Below, in pieces: positions 3,007 through 34,998 of a stretch of DNA of 56,702 nt (the stretch's first letter is position 1; each line of letters begins with the position of its first letter). Origin of the DNA: Enterobacteria phage 9g; the sequence record NC_024146.1; one strand, given 5' to 3'. The position numbers were made by a program, and so were the translations under genes. The notes beneath the pieces are model-generated. The model was not told the DNA's origin, did no database searches, and was given only the letters and a program-made list of their open reading frames with translations.

Positions 3007-3960
3007 TTATTCGTCAAATAAATCCTGGAGACGTTCGTTGAACTTCCCATTGTGGTTAGCAAGAATCATAGCGTTGACCACACCATACGCCCATAAATTG
3101 TATGCAGCGCGTGATTCGTATATGGTTGAAAGTCGTTCGTATGTGAAACCTGACTCCTCTAAGTAGCGCAGAACATTATTCTGTTCTATTTCTGAAAGAT
3201 TACAGATGTGCTGCCCTTGATAGTGGCGTGACGGTGACTTTTCAGATACCTGCATTGGGCCCCACTTAGGAGTTTCAATAGCACCAAACGCCGCAGATTG
3301 AATCCAGGAGGATGAGTCACAGGAGTACCACGGGTAACGCTCCATAAGCGGGCGGGACGTAATACCAAAACCATGAACTTTAATCTTAGCGCGTCCACTA
3401 CCGTCCACAAGGTGCTTATCCCATACCCTGTCCAACCATACCTGAAGTTGTTGTGTACTCGCTCCAACAAGACCACCGAGCGTGATATACTCATAGTTTC
3501 GCACATAATGGTCCAGGTATTCAAAAGGTTCACCGGCGTGGAAGCATGGTAAAGGTCTTACACCTCTGGCTTCCATCTCTTCCTGGTTGCGCCACGTTTG
3601 AAGTGGATCACCAATACCATCGAGTACAGAAGCCATAAGCGAACCATCTTCCACACGGATGATATCTATGTTTCGTTGGATGTAATCACAGTATTCTTTA
3701 ACCGATAACGTAACTCCCAAAGTGTAAGCTGAGAACGCTCCGGAGTCGAGGAATATCTTGGCCCCATCGGCACGCATGGCATCAACATAGGATTGCTTTC
3801 CAACGTAGTGCCAGGATTCGAGAATGTTTGGAATATTTTCGACAACACGTTTTTCTTGTTCGTTGAGTTTGACATAGCGGTTCATTCCTGGTTTATAGCT
3901 GTTCGTATATACGGCAGCCATATAAATCTGAAAGGTATAGTTGATATCTTGTCTGTGCAT
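3007..3960 (-). CDS. dpdA: DpdA-like DNA-guanine transglycosylase (TGT superfamily) for 7-deazaguanine insertion into DNA
   Basis: 317 aa. TGT-like IFLDSGAFSAY (cf. TDSGGFQ) and overall TGT-like length; sits at the 3' end of the folE-queD-queC-queE operon. ATG at 3960 preceded by GGTGA. Confidence 0.75.
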   Translation of the reverse strand: MHRQDINYTFQIYMAAVYTNSYKPGMNRYVKLNEQEKRVVENIPNILESWHYVGKQSYVDAMRADGAKIFLDSGAFSAYTLGVTLSVKEYCDYIQRNIDIIRVEDGSLMASVLDGIGDPLQTWRNQEEMEARGVRPLPCFHAGEPFEYLDHYVRNYEYITLGGLVGASTQQLQVWLDRVWDKHLVDGSGRAKIKVHGFGITSRPLMERYPWYSCDSSSWIQSAAFGAIETPKWGPMQVSEKSPSRHYQGQHICNLSEIEQNNVLRYLEESGFTYERLSTIYESRAAYNLWAYGVVNAMILANHNGKFNERLQDLFDE

Positions 3961-4029
3961 TGTTCACCTAACAAATAAGCGCCCGTAGGCGCTTATTATA
4001 TTAAAGATAATGTATGATTCGCAAATCAG

Positions 4030-4644
4030 TTACTTTTTACACGCTTCAAGAAATTCCCGACGCCATGTGTCACCAGTCACGTCCGGTAATACACCATCAC
4101 CCAATGCAGTACGTCCGCGGAATGCTTTAGTGATGGTTGAGCTTCCGCATACCTGTTTAACACCGCGCGACTCCATGCACATATGTTTTGCATCGATGTA
4201 GACACACACAGCTTTCGGGTCTAAGTGTTCCACGATAGCATCCGCAATCTGATTAGTCAGACGTTCTTGGACTTGCAAACGTCGAGCGAAAGCATCAACT
4301 ACCCGAGATAACTTGCTGAGACCGACGATTTTTCCATTTGGGACATACCCAACCACTGCATGACCAATAATAGGAGCCATGTGATGCTCACAATGACTAT
4401 ATACAGGGATATCACGGACGATGACCATTTCATCACAGTTTTCCCCACCATCTTCAAATGTCTTGAACAGGGATGCGATATCAACAGAATAACCCCCGAA
4501 CCATGTAGCATAAGCCTTAGCTACACGATCTGGAGTTTCTACTAGACCTTCACGCAAGTCATCGCCACCTTCAATCAACTTTAAAATCTTTTCAATACTG
4601 TGCGAAATTTCTGCTCTGTTTGTCATCTTTGTAAATTCATTCAT
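4030..4644 (-). CDS. folE: GTP cyclohydrolase I (FolE)
   Basis: Clear FolE core: ETPDRVAKAY, VIVRDIPVYSHCEHHMAPI, GLSKLSRVVDAFARRLQVQERLT. The longest ORF begins with TTG at 4680 and overlaps queD; the ATG at 4644 with an upstream AAGGA is preferred (4626 is an alternative). Confidence 0.88.
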   Translation of the reverse strand: MNEFTKMTNRAEISHSIEKILKLIEGGDDLREGLVETPDRVAKAYATWFGGYSVDIASLFKTFEDGGENCDEMVIVRDIPVYSHCEHHMAPIIGHAVVGYVPNGKIVGLSKLSRVVDAFARRLQVQERLTNQIADAIVEHLDPKAVCVYIDAKHMCMESRGVKQVCGSSTITKAFRGRTALGDGVLPDVTGDTWRREFLEACKK

Positions 4645-24245: not shown

Positions 24246-24866
24246 TTACGCTCCAAACTGATCAATATATTCAATGAGCTCTTGCAATTCTTGCTGTAAC
24301 TGCACATTACCACTATTATTCGTCTGAAGTCTAACGAGGCGTTCCTTGATATGCCCAATGTGGTTAGTGCTCACCCGACGCTTCTGTACATCACACCAGT
24401 GAACAACACCATCTTTAATATATGCACGACGTGCTTTACCACGCGGGTATCGCATCGGCCGAATTTCACACTTATCGCCCTCCCACTTAAAGCCCAGGAT
24501 CATAACAGCGTTACCTTCCGTATCAGGACACACGTCAAAGCAACTGGTGAACCCTTTACTGTACATATACTTGTTGAGCGGAATCACACAATCCACATCT
24601 AACAACCAGTACCCGAAGTAAATGTCAACAGTGAACATCATACCCGACACCGGAGCCGACCAGCACATATACATCCGCCCGTCATCCAACTTCTTGACCG
24701 CATTCGGCCGCAACACGAGGCCAGCCTCCTTCCACGCTTTGACCACATTACTTAGGCTGTCATTATGCTGCTCTAATATGGCTACCGCTTTGGCGTACAT
24801 ACCTTCGTCATAACCGAACATTTCTTGTACGTGTGCGTGTGTTATTTCAATTTTACGATTCCGCAT
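24246..24866 (-). CDS. Hypothetical protein
   Basis: 206 aa, ATG at 24866 with AAGGTGAGG upstream; first gene of the long minus-strand block. Confidence 0.55.
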   Translation of the reverse strand: MRNRKIEITHAHVQEMFGYDEGMYAKAVAILEQHNDSLSNVVKAWKEAGLVLRPNAVKKLDDGRMYMCWSAPVSGMMFTVDIYFGYWLLDVDCVIPLNKYMYSKGFTSCFDVCPDTEGNAVMILGFKWEGDKCEIRPMRYPRGKARRAYIKDGVVHWCDVQKRRVSTNHIGHIKERLVRLQTNNSGNVQLQQELQELIEYIDQFGA

Positions 24867-25903
24867 AACCTCACCTTGATGATAATAAATCTGCTAATTT
24901 TGAAATTCAGTTGCCAAGTTTTAATTTATGCAAAGTTTTTGCTATTTGCAACTGTGATATTTTGCGGTGTTTGTATGTGCAATGTTTTTGCTTTTGCAAA
25001 AATTACAGCAGTCTGAAGGTGAGAAATTGCAAATTTATAAAGATCGGTGAAAAAATGCACAATTTATAAAGATCCCGTAATACATAAAACGGCGAAGCGA
25101 AGTGTATGAAAAATAAGGGAAAATTTCGAGGATTGGGAGGTTTGTATGAATTTATATTATTTATAAAGGGGTCCCGTAGGGGTCGTCAGTAGACAACTCA
25201 AAAATAAAAAATCTTTATAAAATTTATATAAATACACACATACACACATTTTTACCTTACTTTTCAAGCACTTACCTCCTTTCATTTTGTATATTAAGCG
25301 ACTATATATGAACAATATGACATATATTTGTTGCGCAACACCTGTGCGTTTTTTAACCAATCGAAAGATTGCTTTATATACGTCCGCGCGTCTAACACAA
25401 AAGAAAAGTGGATTGCAAGCGATTTTTGCTGAGGTAACTCTCGAAGTGAAAGCGATTTGCGAGTTTGAAATTTTGTAGCCCGAAAACGATTCTATTTTAT
25501 GGTATAAATGCCGGATTTTTCGGTGAAAGCCGGCTTTTCGGCGAGGTGGGGTGGCCGAGATCGGGGTGGCGAGTCGCCCATAAGGCGAAAATAGCCGCGA
25601 AAACGGGGCACACAGCGCGATTAAATGGTTGGATCAGTGTAAGGGTGGCGGTGAGGGGTGAAAATGCCCTAAAAACGCGTACAGGGAAGCAGGGAGCGGA
25701 TCGCTGTAAGGGCGTATAAAGCGAGCAAATTGGAGTCTATGGTAATGTACGGAAGAGGGATTCAGGTTCTTAGAGCGCGAATGGTGGTGCTATGGGTGAG
25801 GAATATGTGGTCAGCGGGGTAGCGCGGGAGGTTATGCAGGTACAAAGACGAAAACGCCCCGTTGGACTTCAACAGGGCGCGGATTGTATAATGCAGTTAG
25901 AAG
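24867..25903. promoter_or_regulatory. ~1-kb non-coding region: AT-rich motif-dense half (24867-25460) plus purine-skewed G-rich half (25460-25900)
   Basis: No ORF with a plausible start/SD. Repeated TTTGC(A/G)A motifs; direct repeat AATTTATAAAGATC at ~25027 and ~25059; many G-tracts on the plus strand. Role unknown. Confidence 0.4.
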
Positions 25904-26149
25904 TTATTTATTATCTAATAATACCGCCCAGGTATTATCTGGAAGCGTACCAATTCCGAGAATGCGAACCTTCCACTGAGCGCGAGAGTTGTACCTGTCC
26001 ACAAGTTCTTGCGCTGCATAAGCTGCATTCGCTTCGCTGCTGAGGCGGTAGTCAATGGGGGTAACAACGCACATGTCAAGGCCGACAGCTTTATAGCGCC
26101 GACATTTCGTTTCGGTAGCGGACAGGGTTTTTACATGGATAGCTTGCAT
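25904..26149 (-). CDS. Hypothetical small protein (paralogue of 26393..26638)
   Basis: 81 aa, ATG at 26149 with AGAGGA upstream. Shares MxQAI..K.L.A.T ... A..A..EL ... G.LPD with the neighbouring 81-aa ORF. Confidence 0.5.
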   Translation of the reverse strand: MQAIHVKTLSATETKCRRYKAVGLDMCVVTPIDYRLSSEANAAYAAQELVDRYNSRAQWKVRILGIGTLPDNTWAVLLDNK

Positions 26150-26217
26150 AATAGTTTCCTCTGTTAACTATGCGAAGTGCATATTATTGCCCACTGTTAC
26201 TATGGGCAATGTATATG

Positions 26218-26382
26218 TCACTCAGCGGACACGTATTCTAACGCTTCTGATAGTGTAGCGAAGTGACCATCACTTACCAGATTAATAGCGTACTCAAGTT
26301 TATCTCGGGTCAGGTTGCGAAACTTGTTACGGATGTGATAGCAACGACCGTGATAAATAACCTGGAAATAGTTGCGTTCCAT
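26218..26382 (-). CDS. Hypothetical small protein
   Basis: Start moved to the internal ATG at 26382 (AAGGGGA upstream); the longer ORF overlaps the upstream gene. Confidence 0.4.
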   Translation of the reverse strand: MERNYFQVIYHGRCYHIRNKFRNLTRDKLEYAINLVSDGHFATLSEALEYVSAE

Positions 26383-26392
26383 AATTATCCCC

Positions 26393-26638
26393 TTAAGCAA
26401 CGATGAACGCGTAACCGCTTTGATCCGGGAGCTCACCACCAGCAACAATCTCAAATTCAACACCAGCCTTATTGTTGAAGTTCTTGATAAGCTCCTCCGC
26501 CGCGGCGCGGTGGTTTCCGTAAGCACTCAAATCGTAACGCCACGTGATAGTCAAGGAGCCGTTCCAACCCGTTGCTTTTACGCGATCGCCACGGGACATA
26601 GTTGGAGCGAGGAATTTAGTGATAATAGCTTGAGCCAT
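26393..26638 (-). CDS. Hypothetical small protein (paralogue of 25904..26149)
   Basis: 81 aa, ATG at 26638 with GGAGT upstream. Confidence 0.5.
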   Translation of the reverse strand: MAQAIITKFLAPTMSRGDRVKATGWNGSLTITWRYDLSAYGNHRAAAEELIKNFNNKAGVEFEIVAGGELPDQSGYAFIVA

Positions 26639-26643
26639 GATAA

Positions 26644-26829
26644 TTACTCCGGTAATATTACAGTCACGTTAATATTTGCAATGCGAGCGCACTCGCGGAA
26701 ACCTGTTACATAAGCATCCATTTCGTCATAGGATGCGAAAGTCACGTCCGGGACTGGTCCGTTGTTAATATTCACGCAATATTCGTGTTCGTCCAGGTCA
26801 ACCCAACAATATAGAACGATAGTTTCCAT
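26644..26829 (-). CDS. Hypothetical small protein
   Basis: Start moved to the ATG at 26829 (GGAGGG 8 nt upstream); 61 aa. Confidence 0.45.
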   Translation of the reverse strand: METIVLYCWVDLDEHEYCVNINNGPVPDVTFASYDEMDAYVTGFRECARIANINVTVILPE

Positions 26830-26830
26830 A

Positions 26831-26905
26831 TTATTTGCCCTCCGTATAATACAGACCCGCAACTATTGGAGCTCCAAACACCAAGAAAGCTAATAAGTAG
26901 AACAT
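26831..26905 (-). CDS. Candidate 24-aa hydrophobic peptide
   Basis: Not in the ORF track. MFYLLAFLVFGAPIVAGLYYTEGK; AAGGGGG upstream; its stop sits 1 nt before the next ATG. Confidence 0.25.
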   Translation of the reverse strand: MFYLLAFLVFGAPIVAGLYYTEGK

Positions 26906-26907
26906 AA

Positions 26908-27387
26908 TTAATTGCCCCCTTTATTATTGAGCCCGTTGAATTTACGCCATGCGTAGAATTCAATCGTTGCATTATTAATATTCCAACCATTAACTTTCGC
27001 AAGGTCACGGACGTTACCAATAGTTGGCACATTATTAGGTAACATATTATCCAGGGCATTCCAAACGTCTGCGCATTTACCCTTAACTGGGCGGCGGACC
27101 CCGTTGCGCGTTTCGCTGCGCGTTTTACTTTTAACGGGAGCGACAGGAGCTTGCTGTGTGGTCACTTCCACGACAATTGCTTTATCAGCTTCCACCAGAT
27201 CGTTAGCTGCCTTATTAACTGCGCTTTCGCTGAACCAGTAGCGGCCACCATTTTCCATGGGTTCCTGGTGGATAAAACTATTTGCTGTCGCTGTGTCTAC
27301 GTCCAGAAACTTTTTCAAGGCACGGCGAGCGTTAGACATATTGGTGAAAAAGCGAGCATCTTTTGCTACGCGAGTGATAGTAACCAT
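26908..27387 (-). CDS. Hypothetical protein
   Basis: Start moved to the ATG at 27387 (GGAGA 8 nt upstream); 159 aa. Confidence 0.5.
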   Translation of the reverse strand: MVTITRVAKDARFFTNMSNARRALKKFLDVDTATANSFIHQEPMENGGRYWFSESAVNKAANDLVEADKAIVVEVTTQQAPVAPVKSKTRSETRNGVRRPVKGKCADVWNALDNMLPNNVPTIGNVRDLAKVNGWNINNATIEFYAWRKFNGLNNKGGN

Positions 27388-27463
27388 TGTGATTATCTCC
27401 ATGCTGTTCTAGCGGATTGCTAGTGGGAGCCCACTGTTACAATGGGCAACCATTAGCACGCTA

Positions 27464-27769
27464 TCATTGTTGAATAGCTTTCGCTATCATTGTAATAAAG
27501 CAGAACACAGACCACAGACTATTCGCTTGGCATACTGCGCGACCATACATTACGCTATGAGAGCTGACAGTGCCGTCCTCGTTAATGCGAATATACAACG
27601 CGGTGCTGGAATATTTTTCGTTTCCCGGGAGCATTACTAAATACTCGTCAAAATCCCAGTCCCCGGCAACTTTTTCCGCTGTAAGGCCCAACTGGTGCAG
27701 GCGCTTGCCAATAATACGTTTGGTGATCATGGACTGGGACATGGGACGCGGTAAGTAAATACTGGACAT
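27464..27769 (-). CDS. Hypothetical protein (first gene of the minus-strand early cluster)
   Basis: Start moved to the internal ATG at 27769 (AAGGGAGA 8 nt upstream); the ATG at 27886 has no SD. Confidence 0.5.
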   Translation of the reverse strand: MSSIYLPRPMSQSMITKRIIGKRLHQLGLTAEKVAGDWDFDEYLVMLPGNEKYSSTALYIRINEDGTVSSHSVMYGRAVCQANSLWSVFCFITMIAKAIQQ

Positions 27770-27954
27770 AATGCAATCTCCCTTCGGGTGAAGCGGGCGC
27801 GGAACCCGTGTCCCGCTTAAAAACCCCCTTAACCCCACGCAGTTATAGTAGGACAACGGGGTATTAGATGCAACTATTATCTGCATTATTTTAGAACTTT
27901 TTTAGTTGTGTTTCATAATAATAACATCCGGGACTATGCGGTAGATGGTGTGCC

Positions 27955-28033
27955 GGAAATACCAGGTAACGCGAGCGTGTCGAAAATACCAGGTAACAGC
28001 ATATGCCGAACATACCAGGTAGCACATACATAG
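27955..28033. repeat. Three tandem direct repeats (period 26-27 bp) with core GAAAATACCAGGTAAC
   Basis: ggaaATACCAGGTAac (27955-), gaaaATACCAGGTAac (27982-), gaacATACCAGGTAgc (28008-); cores at 27959-27968, 27986-27995, 28012-28021. Confidence 0.7.
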
Positions 28034-28070
28034 ACAGCACATAGTGGGCAGGTGGATAGTAACAGATGTA

Positions 28071-28088
28071 ACTATACTGGACAGTATA
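28071..28088. promoter_or_regulatory. Perfect palindrome CTATACTG-GA-CAGTATAG (operator-like) in the divergent control region
   Basis: 8-bp inverted arms with a 2-bp spacer, between the minus-strand and plus-strand early gene clusters. Direct repeats ACGTTATAGTA occur nearby at ~28154 and ~28216. Confidence 0.4.
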
Positions 28089-28374
28089 GTATAGTCATGT
28101 AATAGATAGCACACTAATCAAATAAAAAATAGTAACGCGTGTAATAATAAACAACGTTATAGTAGAGCGCATGACAGTCACATGACGTAACAATCACCTC
28201 ACCGACGATCACGGGACGTTATAGTAACGCCGCGGGGCGGCTCTTAGATCTCTGCCAAGGATTCATCGTTTGTAGATTATCTCGTCACTAGACACTTTAT
28301 ATCCTCACCTCACCTGCCCTATATTGTTCGTATAAAGTTAATTCCGTATATAAATACTCGAGAGGAGATCTATT

Positions 28375-28662
28375 ATGTTCGTTCTGGCTTTCAGTAGTGC
28401 AATATGGCTAGGTATCAACTGGATCCTTGCAATTATATTAGGTCTTGTGATTTGGTATGTGCCGTTTATGCGTTACGCTGTTATTATTTCGCTTGCATAT
28501 TTAGTTGTTAAACATTTCCTCGTATGGTGTGTATGTAACCCACAAGCTGCAGACATCAAACGTAACAAAGCGAACTTCTTTAGTGTGCTTATTTTAGGTT
28601 CACTGATTGTGTACGCATGGTTGCTCGGTGTGCGGAACTTAGGTTGGTTCACCTTGCCTTAA
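28375..28662 (+). CDS. Small membrane protein (2-3 predicted TM helices)
   Basis: 95 aa, very hydrophobic; ATG at 28375 with GAGGAG upstream; first gene of the plus-strand cluster. Confidence 0.6.
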   Translation: MFVLAFSSAIWLGINWILAIILGLVIWYVPFMRYAVIISLAYLVVKHFLVWCVCNPQAADIKRNKANFFSVLILGSLIVYAWLLGVRNLGWFTLP

Positions 28663-32804: not shown

Positions 32805-32833
32805 TGACATTTGCTATAACCCTTGCAATTAAT
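32804..32833 (+). promoter_or_regulatory. Candidate sigma70 promoter for the packaging/late operon
   Basis: TTGACA 32804-32809, 18-bp spacer, ATTAAT 32828-32833. Weak -10; speculative. Confidence 0.25.
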
Positions 32834-32879
32834 TAGTCCACCGCTTATATTCGTGTCAAGAATCGACAGGAGTAACGTT

Positions 32880-33431
32880 ATGGTAAAGCCTATTCTACCT
32901 TGGACACGTAGCATTGAATACGAAGCCGATCTCACTGAAGAAGAGATGGCTATACGTGACTCTGTCGTTGAAGAATATCTGTTCGATTATGATTGGGTTA
33001 ATGCGTGTAAACGTGTAGGCATGAGCTCCGCAATGGCGTTTGATTATGCTAAACGTTTTCAGGATGATAGCTATTGCCAAAGACGAATTAAAGAACTTCA
33101 ACAGCAGAAAGCAAGAAGTGCTGAACGTGACCGCAAATATGAAATAGAACAAGAGCGCCAGCGCATCATTGAAGGTCTTAGATTTGAATCCACTTATCGT
33201 GGTCCTGGATCTTCTCAAGCTGCTCGTGTTGCTGCATATAAACAATTATGTAGCATCTTTGGATTTGAAGCTCCTAAGCAACAGAAGATGGATGTTGGCG
33301 TATCTACTGGTGTTATGCTGGTTCCTATGGTTGGTTCTATGGCTGATTGGGAAAGAGTTGCTGGGGAGTCTCAGACTAAGCTGCAAGAGGATACTTTAAA
33401 TGGACTCAATGATTCAGACACCGTCCACTAA
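32880..33431 (+). CDS. Terminase small subunit
   Basis: ATG at 32880 (GGAG 7 nt upstream) preferred over the TTG at 32823; 183 aa, charged and helical; immediately upstream of and overlapping TerL. Confidence 0.6.
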   Translation: MVKPILPWTRSIEYEADLTEEEMAIRDSVVEEYLFDYDWVNACKRVGMSSAMAFDYAKRFQDDSYCQRRIKELQQQKARSAERDRKYEIEQERQRIIEGLRFESTYRGPGSSQAARVAAYKQLCSIFGFEAPKQQKMDVGVSTGVMLVPMVGSMADWERVAGESQTKLQEDTLNGLNDSDTVH

Positions 33432-34998
33432 GGTAGTATGGAAACCACATCCAGGATCTCAGGTACTGGCACTAAGTTGTCCAGCAGATGAGATTTTATA
33501 TCATGGTACTCGTGGCCCTGGAAAGACCGATGCTCAGTTGATGCGTTTTCGTCGTTATGTTGGCATGGGGTATGGTAAACACTGGCGCGGTATCATTTTT
33601 GACCGAGAATACAAAAACTTAGATGACTTAGTTGCAAAGTCACAGCGTTGGTTTCCTGAATTTAATGATGGTTGTAAATTCTTATCTTCCAAGTCAGATT
33701 ATAAATGGGTATGGCCTAGCGGCGAAGAACTAATGTTCCGTGTTGCTAAAAAACCTAAGGATTACTGGCTGTACCACGGTCAGGAATTTCCATTTATTGG
33801 ATGGAACGAATTAACTAAATATCCTGATAGTGGGCTTTATGAAGCAATGAAGTCCTGTAACCGTACATCCTTTGTTGCAGAAGAAAACCCAATAATTATT
33901 GACGGTGATGTGTATCAGAGAACTGGGCGTCTTGTGCTTGTTCAACCGGACCATGAATACGCAATGCAGTTCATACTACCACCTTTGCCGTTGCAGATCT
34001 TTTCTACGACTAACCCATTTGGGGTTGGACATAACTGGGTCAAGAAATATTTTATTAACTCTTGCCCTCTTGGGTCCATGAAGAAGGAAGTAACAAACGT
34101 CTTCAACCCTCGTACACAGAAACGGGAAGACGTAGTTCGAACTCGCTGCCATATATTTGGTTCGTATCGAGAGAACCGCAACTTGACACCTGAGTATGTT
34201 GCGCAGCTTGTAAACATTGACGATCCTAACCTCCGTATGGCATGGCTCGGTGGTAGCTGGGATATTACGTCAGGCGGAATGTTCGACGACCTGTGGCGTC
34301 AGAATATACATGTGGTCAAGCCATTCCCAATACCTCACTCCTGGAGAATTGATAGATCATTTGACTGGGGCTCAAGTAAACCGTTTTCTGTTGGTTGGTG
34401 GGCAAGAAGTGATGGTAGTGATATCGTGTATCCAAATGGGCGTCGTGTACGAACAGTACGAGGTGACTTATTTAGGATCATGGAGTGGTATGGTACTAAC
34501 GGGAAACCGAACGAAGGTTTAAGATTATTGGATTCTGAAATTGCTCGTGGTATCATCGTCAGGGAAATTGAAGCTGGTTTATACGGTCGCGTAGTTCCAG
34601 GCCCTGCTGATAACAGCATTTGGGACGTTAAGGACGGTAACAGTACCGCAGCAACAATGTCTAAACCAATAACTATCAATGGTCGGTCTTATCCTGGTGT
34701 ACAGTGGATTCGAAGTGATAAATCCCCTGGATCTCGTAAAGCAGGTTGGAAACGAATGCGGGAATATTTAGCTGCTTCAATTCCGGATCCTAAGGTTGCC
34801 GCTTTACGTGAAAGACCTTCTATGTTTATTTTTGATAACTGTCATCACTTTATAGATCTTGTTCCAACTCTTGCTAGAGACGAAGATGATCTTGATGATG
34901 TCGATACTGATTCTGAAGACCACATTGCTGACGAAGCTCGTTATCGCGTAGCTAACGAAGCACGTGGTGGTAGTATCGGTAAGACTGTTGGGACATAA
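33400..34998 (+). CDS. Terminase large subunit
   Basis: 532 aa. Walker A GTRGPGKT near the N-terminus; C-terminal nuclease-like acidic residues; AAGAGG upstream. Confidence 0.9.
   Translation: MDSMIQTPSTKVVWKPHPGSQVLALSCPADEILYHGTRGPGKTDAQLMRFRRYVGMGYGKHWRGIIFDREYKNLDDLVAKSQRWFPEFNDGCKFLSSKSDYKWVWPSGEELMFRVAKKPKDYWLYHGQEFPFIGWNELTKYPDSGLYEAMKSCNRTSFVAEENPIIIDGDVYQRTGRLVLVQPDHEYAMQFILPPLPLQIFSTTNPFGVGHNWVKKYFINSCPLGSMKKEVTNVFNPRTQKREDVVRTRCHIFGSYRENRNLTPEYVAQLVNIDDPNLRMAWLGGSWDITSGGMFDDLWRQNIHVVKPFPIPHSWRIDRSFDWGSSKPFSVGWWARSDGSDIVYPNGRRVRTVRGDLFRIMEWYGTNGKPNEGLRLLDSEIARGIIVREIEAGLYGRVVPGPADNSIWDVKDGNSTAATMSKPITINGRSYPGVQWIRSDKSPGSRKAGWKRMREYLAASIPDPKVAALRERPSMFIFDNCHHFIDLVPTLARDEDDLDDVDTDSEDHIADEARYRVANEARGGSIGKTVGT

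Follow-up and report, generated by a model that had tools for sequence, protein, structure and literature searches.

The largest untranslated gap of phage 9g as the probable inner border of a direct terminal repeat

Enterobacteria phage 9g carries 1037 bp without an open reading frame, at 24867-25903, the largest untranslated gap in its 56.7-kb genome (NC_024146.1; the window is this whole stretch of 56,702 nucleotides). What this DNA does is the question raised by the locus. The first-pass annotation had noticed a segment dense in short repeats and considered a replication origin, a cluster of promoters, or both. Comparison with related phages points to another answer: the gap is probably the junction of unique DNA with a direct terminal repeat (DTR) of about 3.1 kb belonging to a 9g-type siphovirus. 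To our knowledge, the packaging signals of phages with long DTRs are poorly defined outside T7.

Extent of the gap and the physical genome ends

The ORF-free segment noticed earlier is real, but its length is 1037 bp and not the roughly 600 bp first given. It had also been placed ahead of the gene that opens the minus-strand block, a placement that has to be abandoned since minus-strand genes also lie on the far side, at 25904-27886. The gap is framed by a gene and a terminator, and the terminase genes lie further along:

24246..24866, minus strand: first gene after the gap (phrog_18014, 206 aa), preceded by the ribosome-binding site AAGGTGAGG
25880->25854, minus strand: intrinsic terminator that closes the early genes of the repeat, also annotated by two depositors
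32823..33431, plus strand: terminase small subunit (TerS) gene, identified by family; presumed reader of the boundary signals
33400..34998, plus strand: terminase large subunit (TerL) gene, identified by family

One physical end was located by the sequencing of 9g itself, in which 91 read starts and 23 read ends were counted at 28,243 together with reads crossing this position; a direct terminal repeat was deduced, the size of which could not be evaluated (PMC4276943). Only in the records of two relatives, HdSG1 and HdK1, is the region present twice. The same sequence stands at both ends of each record, as terminal duplications of 3363 bp (HdSG1) and 3367 bp (HdK1) that are exact, with 0 mismatches, in GenBank entries linearised by their depositors at abrupt read ends. 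The HdSG1 record opens with TTTATAAAGGGGTC, which corresponds to window position 25160, and that of HdK1 opens 3 nt later, at 25163, while both finish with CGCGGGGCGGCTC, corresponding to 28243. The exact match at 28243 and the near-match at 25160/25163 in two phages argue against an assembly artefact and against headful ends. Based on homology to these two relatives, we infer an inner end at 25160-25163 in 9g. In the 9g paper one hot spot of read ends is given, that at 28,243, and none is mentioned near 25160 (PMC4276943), so that the end at 25160 could be less sharp in 9g. The resulting coordinates are:

25160..28243, no strand: putative direct terminal repeat of about 3084 bp, by homology to the HdSG1 and HdK1 duplications
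25159..25163, no strand: inner DTR boundary and candidate for one virion DNA end, at 25160 in HdSG1 and 25163 in HdK1
28243..28244, no strand: outer DTR boundary and other physical end, the published 9g read-end hot spot

Within these borders fall five small early ORFs on the minus strand, each 60 aa or longer, together with the terminator and 744 bp that belong to the gap; by coordinate count, the other 293 bp of the gap are unique DNA. In the same wider group, Pseudomonas phage iggy has a mapped DTR of 1091 bp, and in the iggy paper TerL of Nonagvirus shares a clade with a phage whose DTR has been mapped; the layout of iggy is too different for comparison with the gap. The ends of two metagenomic contigs (L021 and L023) are not at the DTR boundary, and further matches to an 18-mer were mostly unrelated. 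The literature on the genus yielded no paper on the size of the repeat or on its boundary signals.

Repeated words and the boundary element

All of the repeats first noticed in the gap were found again. The direct repeat AATTTATAAAGATC has exactly two copies, 25032-25045 and 25061-25074, which corrects its coordinates slightly; the GGGGTC pair is present at 25168 and 25179, and the ACACACATACACACA tract at 25234-25248. Words of the type TTTGC(A/G)A are also present and exceed the genome rate, but "many copies" was a generous description, since TTTGCRA is counted 4 times on both strands of 24867-25460, where the genome rate predicts 0.25. On the plus strand TTTGCAA is read at 24945 and 24993, on the minus strand at 24994 and 25027; TTTGCGA stands at 25456. 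Clustering of TTTGC, TGCAA and TTTTGC at 24900-25060 has a probability of about 1e-6 to 1e-8 at the genome rate, but of just 0.01-0.03 when the AT-rich region itself is shuffled by dinucleotides for comparison. The shorter word TTTATAAAG is more confined: all 4 of its copies in 56.7 kb (0.94 expected) lie inside 25034-25221, less than 190 bp. No 11-mer family common to the gap and other intergenic regions was found. These words are arranged as follows:

24900..25060, no strand: cluster of TGCAA, TTTTGC and TTGCAA words, in the unique-side part of the gap
25033..25042, plus strand: ATTTATAAAG copy 1, within the first 14-mer AATTTATAAAGATC
25062..25071, plus strand: ATTTATAAAG copy 2, within the second 14-mer AATTTATAAAGATC
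25159..25168, plus strand: ATTTATAAAG copy 3, which sits on the terminus
25213..25222, minus strand: inverted copy of the motif, read as TTTTATAAAG on this strand

The third ATTTATAAAG copy and the inverted copy at 25213-25222 form an inverted repeat with a spacer of 44 nt, so that the terminus lies in one arm of it. Around this inverted repeat are gathered the other elements of the boundary, one of which recurs near the outer end:

25150..25168, no strand: left arm of the inverted repeat; contains the terminus, core invariant in 17/17 sequences
25213..25233, no strand: right arm; outside it, weaker pairing continues into the ACACACATACACACA tract as far as 25243
25168..25184, plus strand: two GGGGTC copies, 11 nt apart, within the spacer of the inverted repeat
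25184..25195, plus strand: CGTCAGTAGACA, copy A of the boundary motif, beginning 24 nt into the DTR; no variation among 17 sequences
28283..28294, plus strand: CGTCACTAGACA, boundary motif copy B, which starts 39 nt beyond the outer DTR boundary
25195..25331, no strand: duplex with the lowest stability and highest AT content in the genome, at window sizes of 40-200 bp

Folded as DNA, the inverted repeat gave z-scores of -2.3 and -2.75. In 6 of the 17 sequences TTA is replaced by AAT at 25157-25159, after which these three positions match the right arm, and contiguous pairing reaches about 16 bp in the three of them that keep A at 25222. No covariation was found in the inverted repeat among the 17 sequences, only invariance, so that the hairpin is a candidate structure.

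Copies A and B are the two forms of a 12-mer, CGYCASTAGRCA, that is CG(T/C)CA(G/C)TAG(A/G)CA, which has exactly 2 matches in the genome where 0.08 are expected; none of 100 shuffles gave 2 or more. Both matches are on the plus strand and on the high-coordinate side of a boundary, at distances of 24 nt from 25160 and 39 nt from 28243/28244. Copy B at 28283 is conserved across Nonagvirus, a divergent metagenomic relative (L033) has the 12-mer at both homologous boundaries, and in Klebsiella phages of the Queuovirinae it is doubled at the left boundary. On this distribution, the 12-mer is the best candidate for a signal recognised at both cuts. The surrounding 25180-25260 is about 100% conserved, and in all some 100 bp on the repeat side of the terminus, which include the GGGGTC pair, copy A and the most easily melted DNA, show hardly any variation. 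IHF core sites were absent from both 24700-26000 and 28000-28400.

Conservation and competing explanations

Over 1.3 kb around the gap, 9g is 86-94% identical to 16 records representing 12 other phage genomes, all of them members of Nonagvirus, the 9g-like siphoviruses of E. coli and Salmonella. A search through the flanking proteins returned homologues in Nonagvirus and three Klebsiella-group phages only. Mean pairwise identity is 0.96 at 25160-25300 and 0.957 at 25386-25520, 0.889 on the unique side (24867-25159), with 94-99% conservation at 24900-24920 and 24980-25060, and 0.68 at 25301-25385. In the flanking genes it is 0.72-0.86 at third codon positions and 0.90-0.97 at second codon positions, and the two best gap blocks match the second positions in conservation. 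Judged by these identities, the gap is under selection. Two parts of the repeat side stand out:

25301..25385, no strand: hypervariable cassette with three allelic forms
25384..25500, no strand: conserved block, 0.96 in the genus and about 71% with the Klebsiella Queuovirinae phages; has an invariant AAAACGATTCTATTTTAT

In SE1, SP8 and PD328 the hypervariable cassette contains an extra module, TTTATAAA-N7-CGTCAGTAGACA. TTGCAA words are kept in HdSG1, HdK1 and ESCO3 despite differing surrounding sequence. The Klebsiella relatives are without TTTATAAAG and show just a looser TAAAGGGGT with a run of A and T behind it.

Conserved untranslated DNA of this kind admits several explanations. A promoter or regulatory region for the middle (replication) genes, with the repeated words as operator or activator sites, is possible though rather unlikely. 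Transcription of the 25-kb block would restart in the gap after the early terminator: with the terminator at 25880->25854 and the next gene starting at 24866 behind a good ribosome-binding site, a start signal is needed unless there is read-through. The conserved stretches of the unique side would suit such a function, as would the persistence of TTGCAA words where their flanks differ, and the best minus-strand candidate, TTGCAA-17-TAAATT, lies at 24951..24923. However, the cluster of promoters proposed at first does not emerge from the scans, in which sigma-70-like sites are at chance (11 found by consensus, 10.3 expected) and the best minus-strand weight-matrix scores, 8.3-8.7, are ordinary in a genome where 131 sites score at least 8. 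The gap motifs are absent from the rest of the genome, unlike those of a reusable phage promoter, and a promoter leaves unexplained both the physical end and the motif common to the other boundary. No transcriptome or terminus paper was found in the literature on the genus. A hidden small-protein gene or a structured non-coding RNA is hardly credible. In favour of one or the other are short minus-strand ORFs annotated by depositors (BRET_69, SE1 gp43, HdK1rev_00095 and JenK1 AKA61107), AAAGGAGG ahead of a minus-strand TTG codon at about 25275, and, on the plus strand, a weak promoter-like site at 25133-25160 with a terminator-like hairpin at 25332-25348. Yet the minus-strand ORF that recurs (25157-25360) loses its frame to 1-nt indels at 25178, 25200, 25206 and 25248, the plus-strand hairpin is missing in two of the three allelic forms, and Rfam returned nothing significant at gathering and E-value thresholds. 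Sliding RNAalifold over the gap was unremarkable, its predicted pairs being invariant and not covarying, and apart from the terminator and the inverted repeat of the DNA it flagged a single window, G-rich and with invariant pairs; no tRNAs were found. The check proposed earlier, for a conserved small protein gene, found none in the six-frame ORFs of 13 phages. The view of the gap as non-coding, cis-acting DNA rather than a gene thus holds, with no ORF conserved among the 13 phages and two blocks highly conserved.

A replication origin, in which the AT-rich tract is a DNA-unwinding element and TTTATAAAG together with the TGCAA repeats are initiator sites upstream of the replication block, is unlikely; the sequence suggests it weakly, and it could coexist with a terminal-repeat boundary. 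The duplex here is the least stable of the genome at every window size, as an AT-rich unwinding element should be, and a genome-unique repeat family flanks it. Five DnaA-like words with one mismatch (TTATGCAAA, TTTTGCAAA and others) lie at 24926-25113, against about 0.45 expected in 24900-25115 when scaled from 119 in 56.7 kb, about seven 15-bp iteron-like repeats were read by eye in the homologous gaps of the Klebsiella relatives, and cumulative GC skew has its minimum near 24.8 kb. On the other hand, the gap has no consensus DnaA box (exact TTWTNCACA), near-matches to the box are fewer genome-wide than in shuffles, and tandem iterons are absent at the equivalent place in Nonagvirus. The GC-skew minimum arises because of gene orientation and a G-rich untranslated stretch; genes to either side show no significant difference in coding-strand skew (p = 0.12). 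No initiator gene adjoining the gap was identified in the Pfam and PHROGs family annotation. An injection-stop signal as in T5 is very improbable. Under it the repeat would enter first, its early genes would be expressed, and structured DNA at the inner edge would pause further entry. Its layout matches that of Repeat Region 3 of T5, and the 9g repeat encodes only small early genes, with no Pfam match and with PHROGs of unknown function. However, two-step entry was never reported for 9g-type phages, their repeat is three times shorter than that of T5, and paired DnaA boxes are absent from the gap, as are consensus ones. The T5 A1 protein has several hundred residues; the largest ORF in the 9g repeat has 164 aa, so that a protein of the size of A1 cannot be encoded there.

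A boundary model beside known systems

Under the reading that we favour, a junction of unique DNA with the terminal repeat, the CA-rich tract, the GGGGTC pair and the TTTATAAAG copies are accounted for as parts of one boundary element. The boundary elements would be cis signals at which terminase recognises and cuts replicated concatemers. Such concatemers would carry one copy of the repeat per junction; terminase would cut at both borders, and a second copy of the repeat would then be made by synthesis with strand displacement or fold-back, along the lines proposed for T7. Strand opening or fold-back during this duplication may be aided by the inverted repeat and by the AT-rich tract. The 293 bp on the unique side would also have to hold the start of replication-block expression after the upstream terminator, and no recognisable sigma-70 promoter was found within them. 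A bolder version of the model is doubtful: the 12-mer would mark both borders and thereby measure the 3.1-kb repeat for the packaging machinery or for a dedicated nickase, while the adjacent region of about 1 kb would couple end formation to a second activity, such as replication initiation at the weakest duplex of the genome or a pause in entry as in T5.

If this bolder version is true, 9g-type phages would offer a small, tractable system for studying how long terminal repeats are defined. Previously one end of 9g had been mapped; new are a candidate second end at 25160-25163 and a repeat of about 3084 bp, which would comprise the early-gene module and most of the largest untranslated region of the genome. 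The coordinates would serve the correct linearisation and annotation of Queuovirinae, most of whose examined records are cut arbitrarily, several with spurious ORFs. In phage engineering the junction would have to stay intact, and its boundary words are candidate recognition signals for long-DTR packaging.

How does this junction compare with known systems? Origins built of iterons and an unwinding element share with it an extremely AT-rich, easily melted tract beside short repeated words; the region differs from them in lacking DnaA boxes, a neighbouring initiator gene and, in Nonagvirus, tandem iterons. In the cos site of lambda, the nicking site cosN has short repeats that bind terminase (cosB) to one side of it, and the putative cut site of 9g, with short repeated words beside it, may resemble this arrangement. 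Unlike lambda, which has 12-nt cohesive ends and no terminal repeat, 9g would have two cut sites 3.1 kb apart, and its boundaries are without an IHF core site. With T7 and T3, 9g would share exact, non-permuted ends and one repeat per concatemer junction that is cut at both borders and duplicated; no sequence similarity exists between them. The T7 repeat is about 160 bp long and carries no genes, and T7 maturation is tied to the promoters of its own RNA polymerase. A hairpin intermediate near the T7 repeat is reported in summary form (PMC4281155); the inverted repeat of 9g, compared with it, spans the putative cut.

T5 offers the nearest anatomy. Its Repeat Region 3 is an untranslated segment of 1.2 kb, most of which belongs to the left terminal repeat, with 270 bp reaching over into the unique part of the genome; it abounds in palindromes and in direct and inverted repeats, is better conserved than nearby ORFs, and was proposed to be the injection stop signal (bioRxiv 10.1101/866236). 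The two regions differ in that the 9g repeat has 3.1 kb and that of T5 about 10 kb, in sequence, where no similarity exists, and in the DnaA boxes, of which 9g has neither consensus nor paired ones. Lacking paired boxes and an A1-sized gene, the 9g region resembles that of T5 but cannot be filed as one. In conclusion, with an untranslated gap of 1037 bp that reaches 293 bp past the DTR edge and is conserved above its flanking genes, the 9g junction appears to find its closest anatomical match in Repeat Region 3 of T5.

Conserved and replaceable parts of the untranslated gap

The untranslated gap at 24867-25903, which straddles the inner boundary of the inferred direct terminal repeat (25160-28243), contains a block at 25384-25500 that is conserved at ~96% in Nonagvirus, the genus of 9g-type phages, and at ~71% in the Klebsiella Queuovirinae phages K9PH25C2, Kpn2-P2 and Ec1-ASingh. 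The words AAAACGATTCTATTTTAT and GGATTGCAAGCGATT are invariant within this block, which was examined for a promoter, an ORF and RNA structure, none of which was convincing. Iteron-like units of the Klebsiella relatives are located immediately past the conserved block, inside the homologous ~1.24-kb untranslated gap, and are absent from Nonagvirus. In K9PH25C2 (record L015), ~7 tandem units of ~15 bp, of the GCTAAC.ATTAGA type, were read by eye at 3620-3740; iteron-like units were likewise seen in the relatives' records L016 and L017.

A hypervariable cassette at 25301-25385, by its appearance a hot spot of recombination, occurs in three unrelated allelic forms among phages that are otherwise 90% identical. 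A terminator-like hairpin on the plus strand (25332-25348) with a T-run is present in form A. Form C has an additional module of the boundary motif, the 12-nt word found beside each boundary of the repeat. Phage JenP1 has an HNH homing-endonuclease gene (JenP1 3972-4579, the equivalent of window 25672-25901) in place of ~230 bp of gap sequence, with the early intrinsic terminator among the bases lost; this part of the untranslated region can therefore be spared or replaced.

Just downstream of the early terminator lies an untranslated stretch of ~320 nt (25507-25853, minus strand). The transcribed minus strand here is C-rich and G-poor (C 0.33-0.44 versus G 0.12-0.21), a composition that would fit a Rho-utilisation site backing up the intrinsic terminator.

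Early genes and control region of the repeat

Two members of phrog_3199 (function unknown), each of 81 aa, are encoded in the terminal repeat at 25904-26149 and 26393-26638, both on the minus strand; their genes appear to be early paralogues. The early and late gene blocks are separated by a divergent control region, where ATACCAGGTA(A/G)C occurs three times at 27955-28025; these copies could be operators bound by a phage regulator.

Outer boundary and read coverage

The outer boundary region (28131-28243) is conserved at 96-98% across the genus, and AGATCT follows the outer cut. The region has local repeats of its own, as listed below.

Repeats at the outer boundary, from direct reading of the sequence
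~28154 and ~28215: outer-boundary repeat ACGTTATAGTA
~28130 and ~28221: outer-boundary repeat TAGTAACGC

In the 9g paper (PMC4276943), the half of the genome that holds the early genes has ~1.5-fold higher read coverage, and the level changes abruptly at 28,243. The 3.1-kb repeat does not explain this excess, which may come from partially packaged DNA or from DNA-modification bias.
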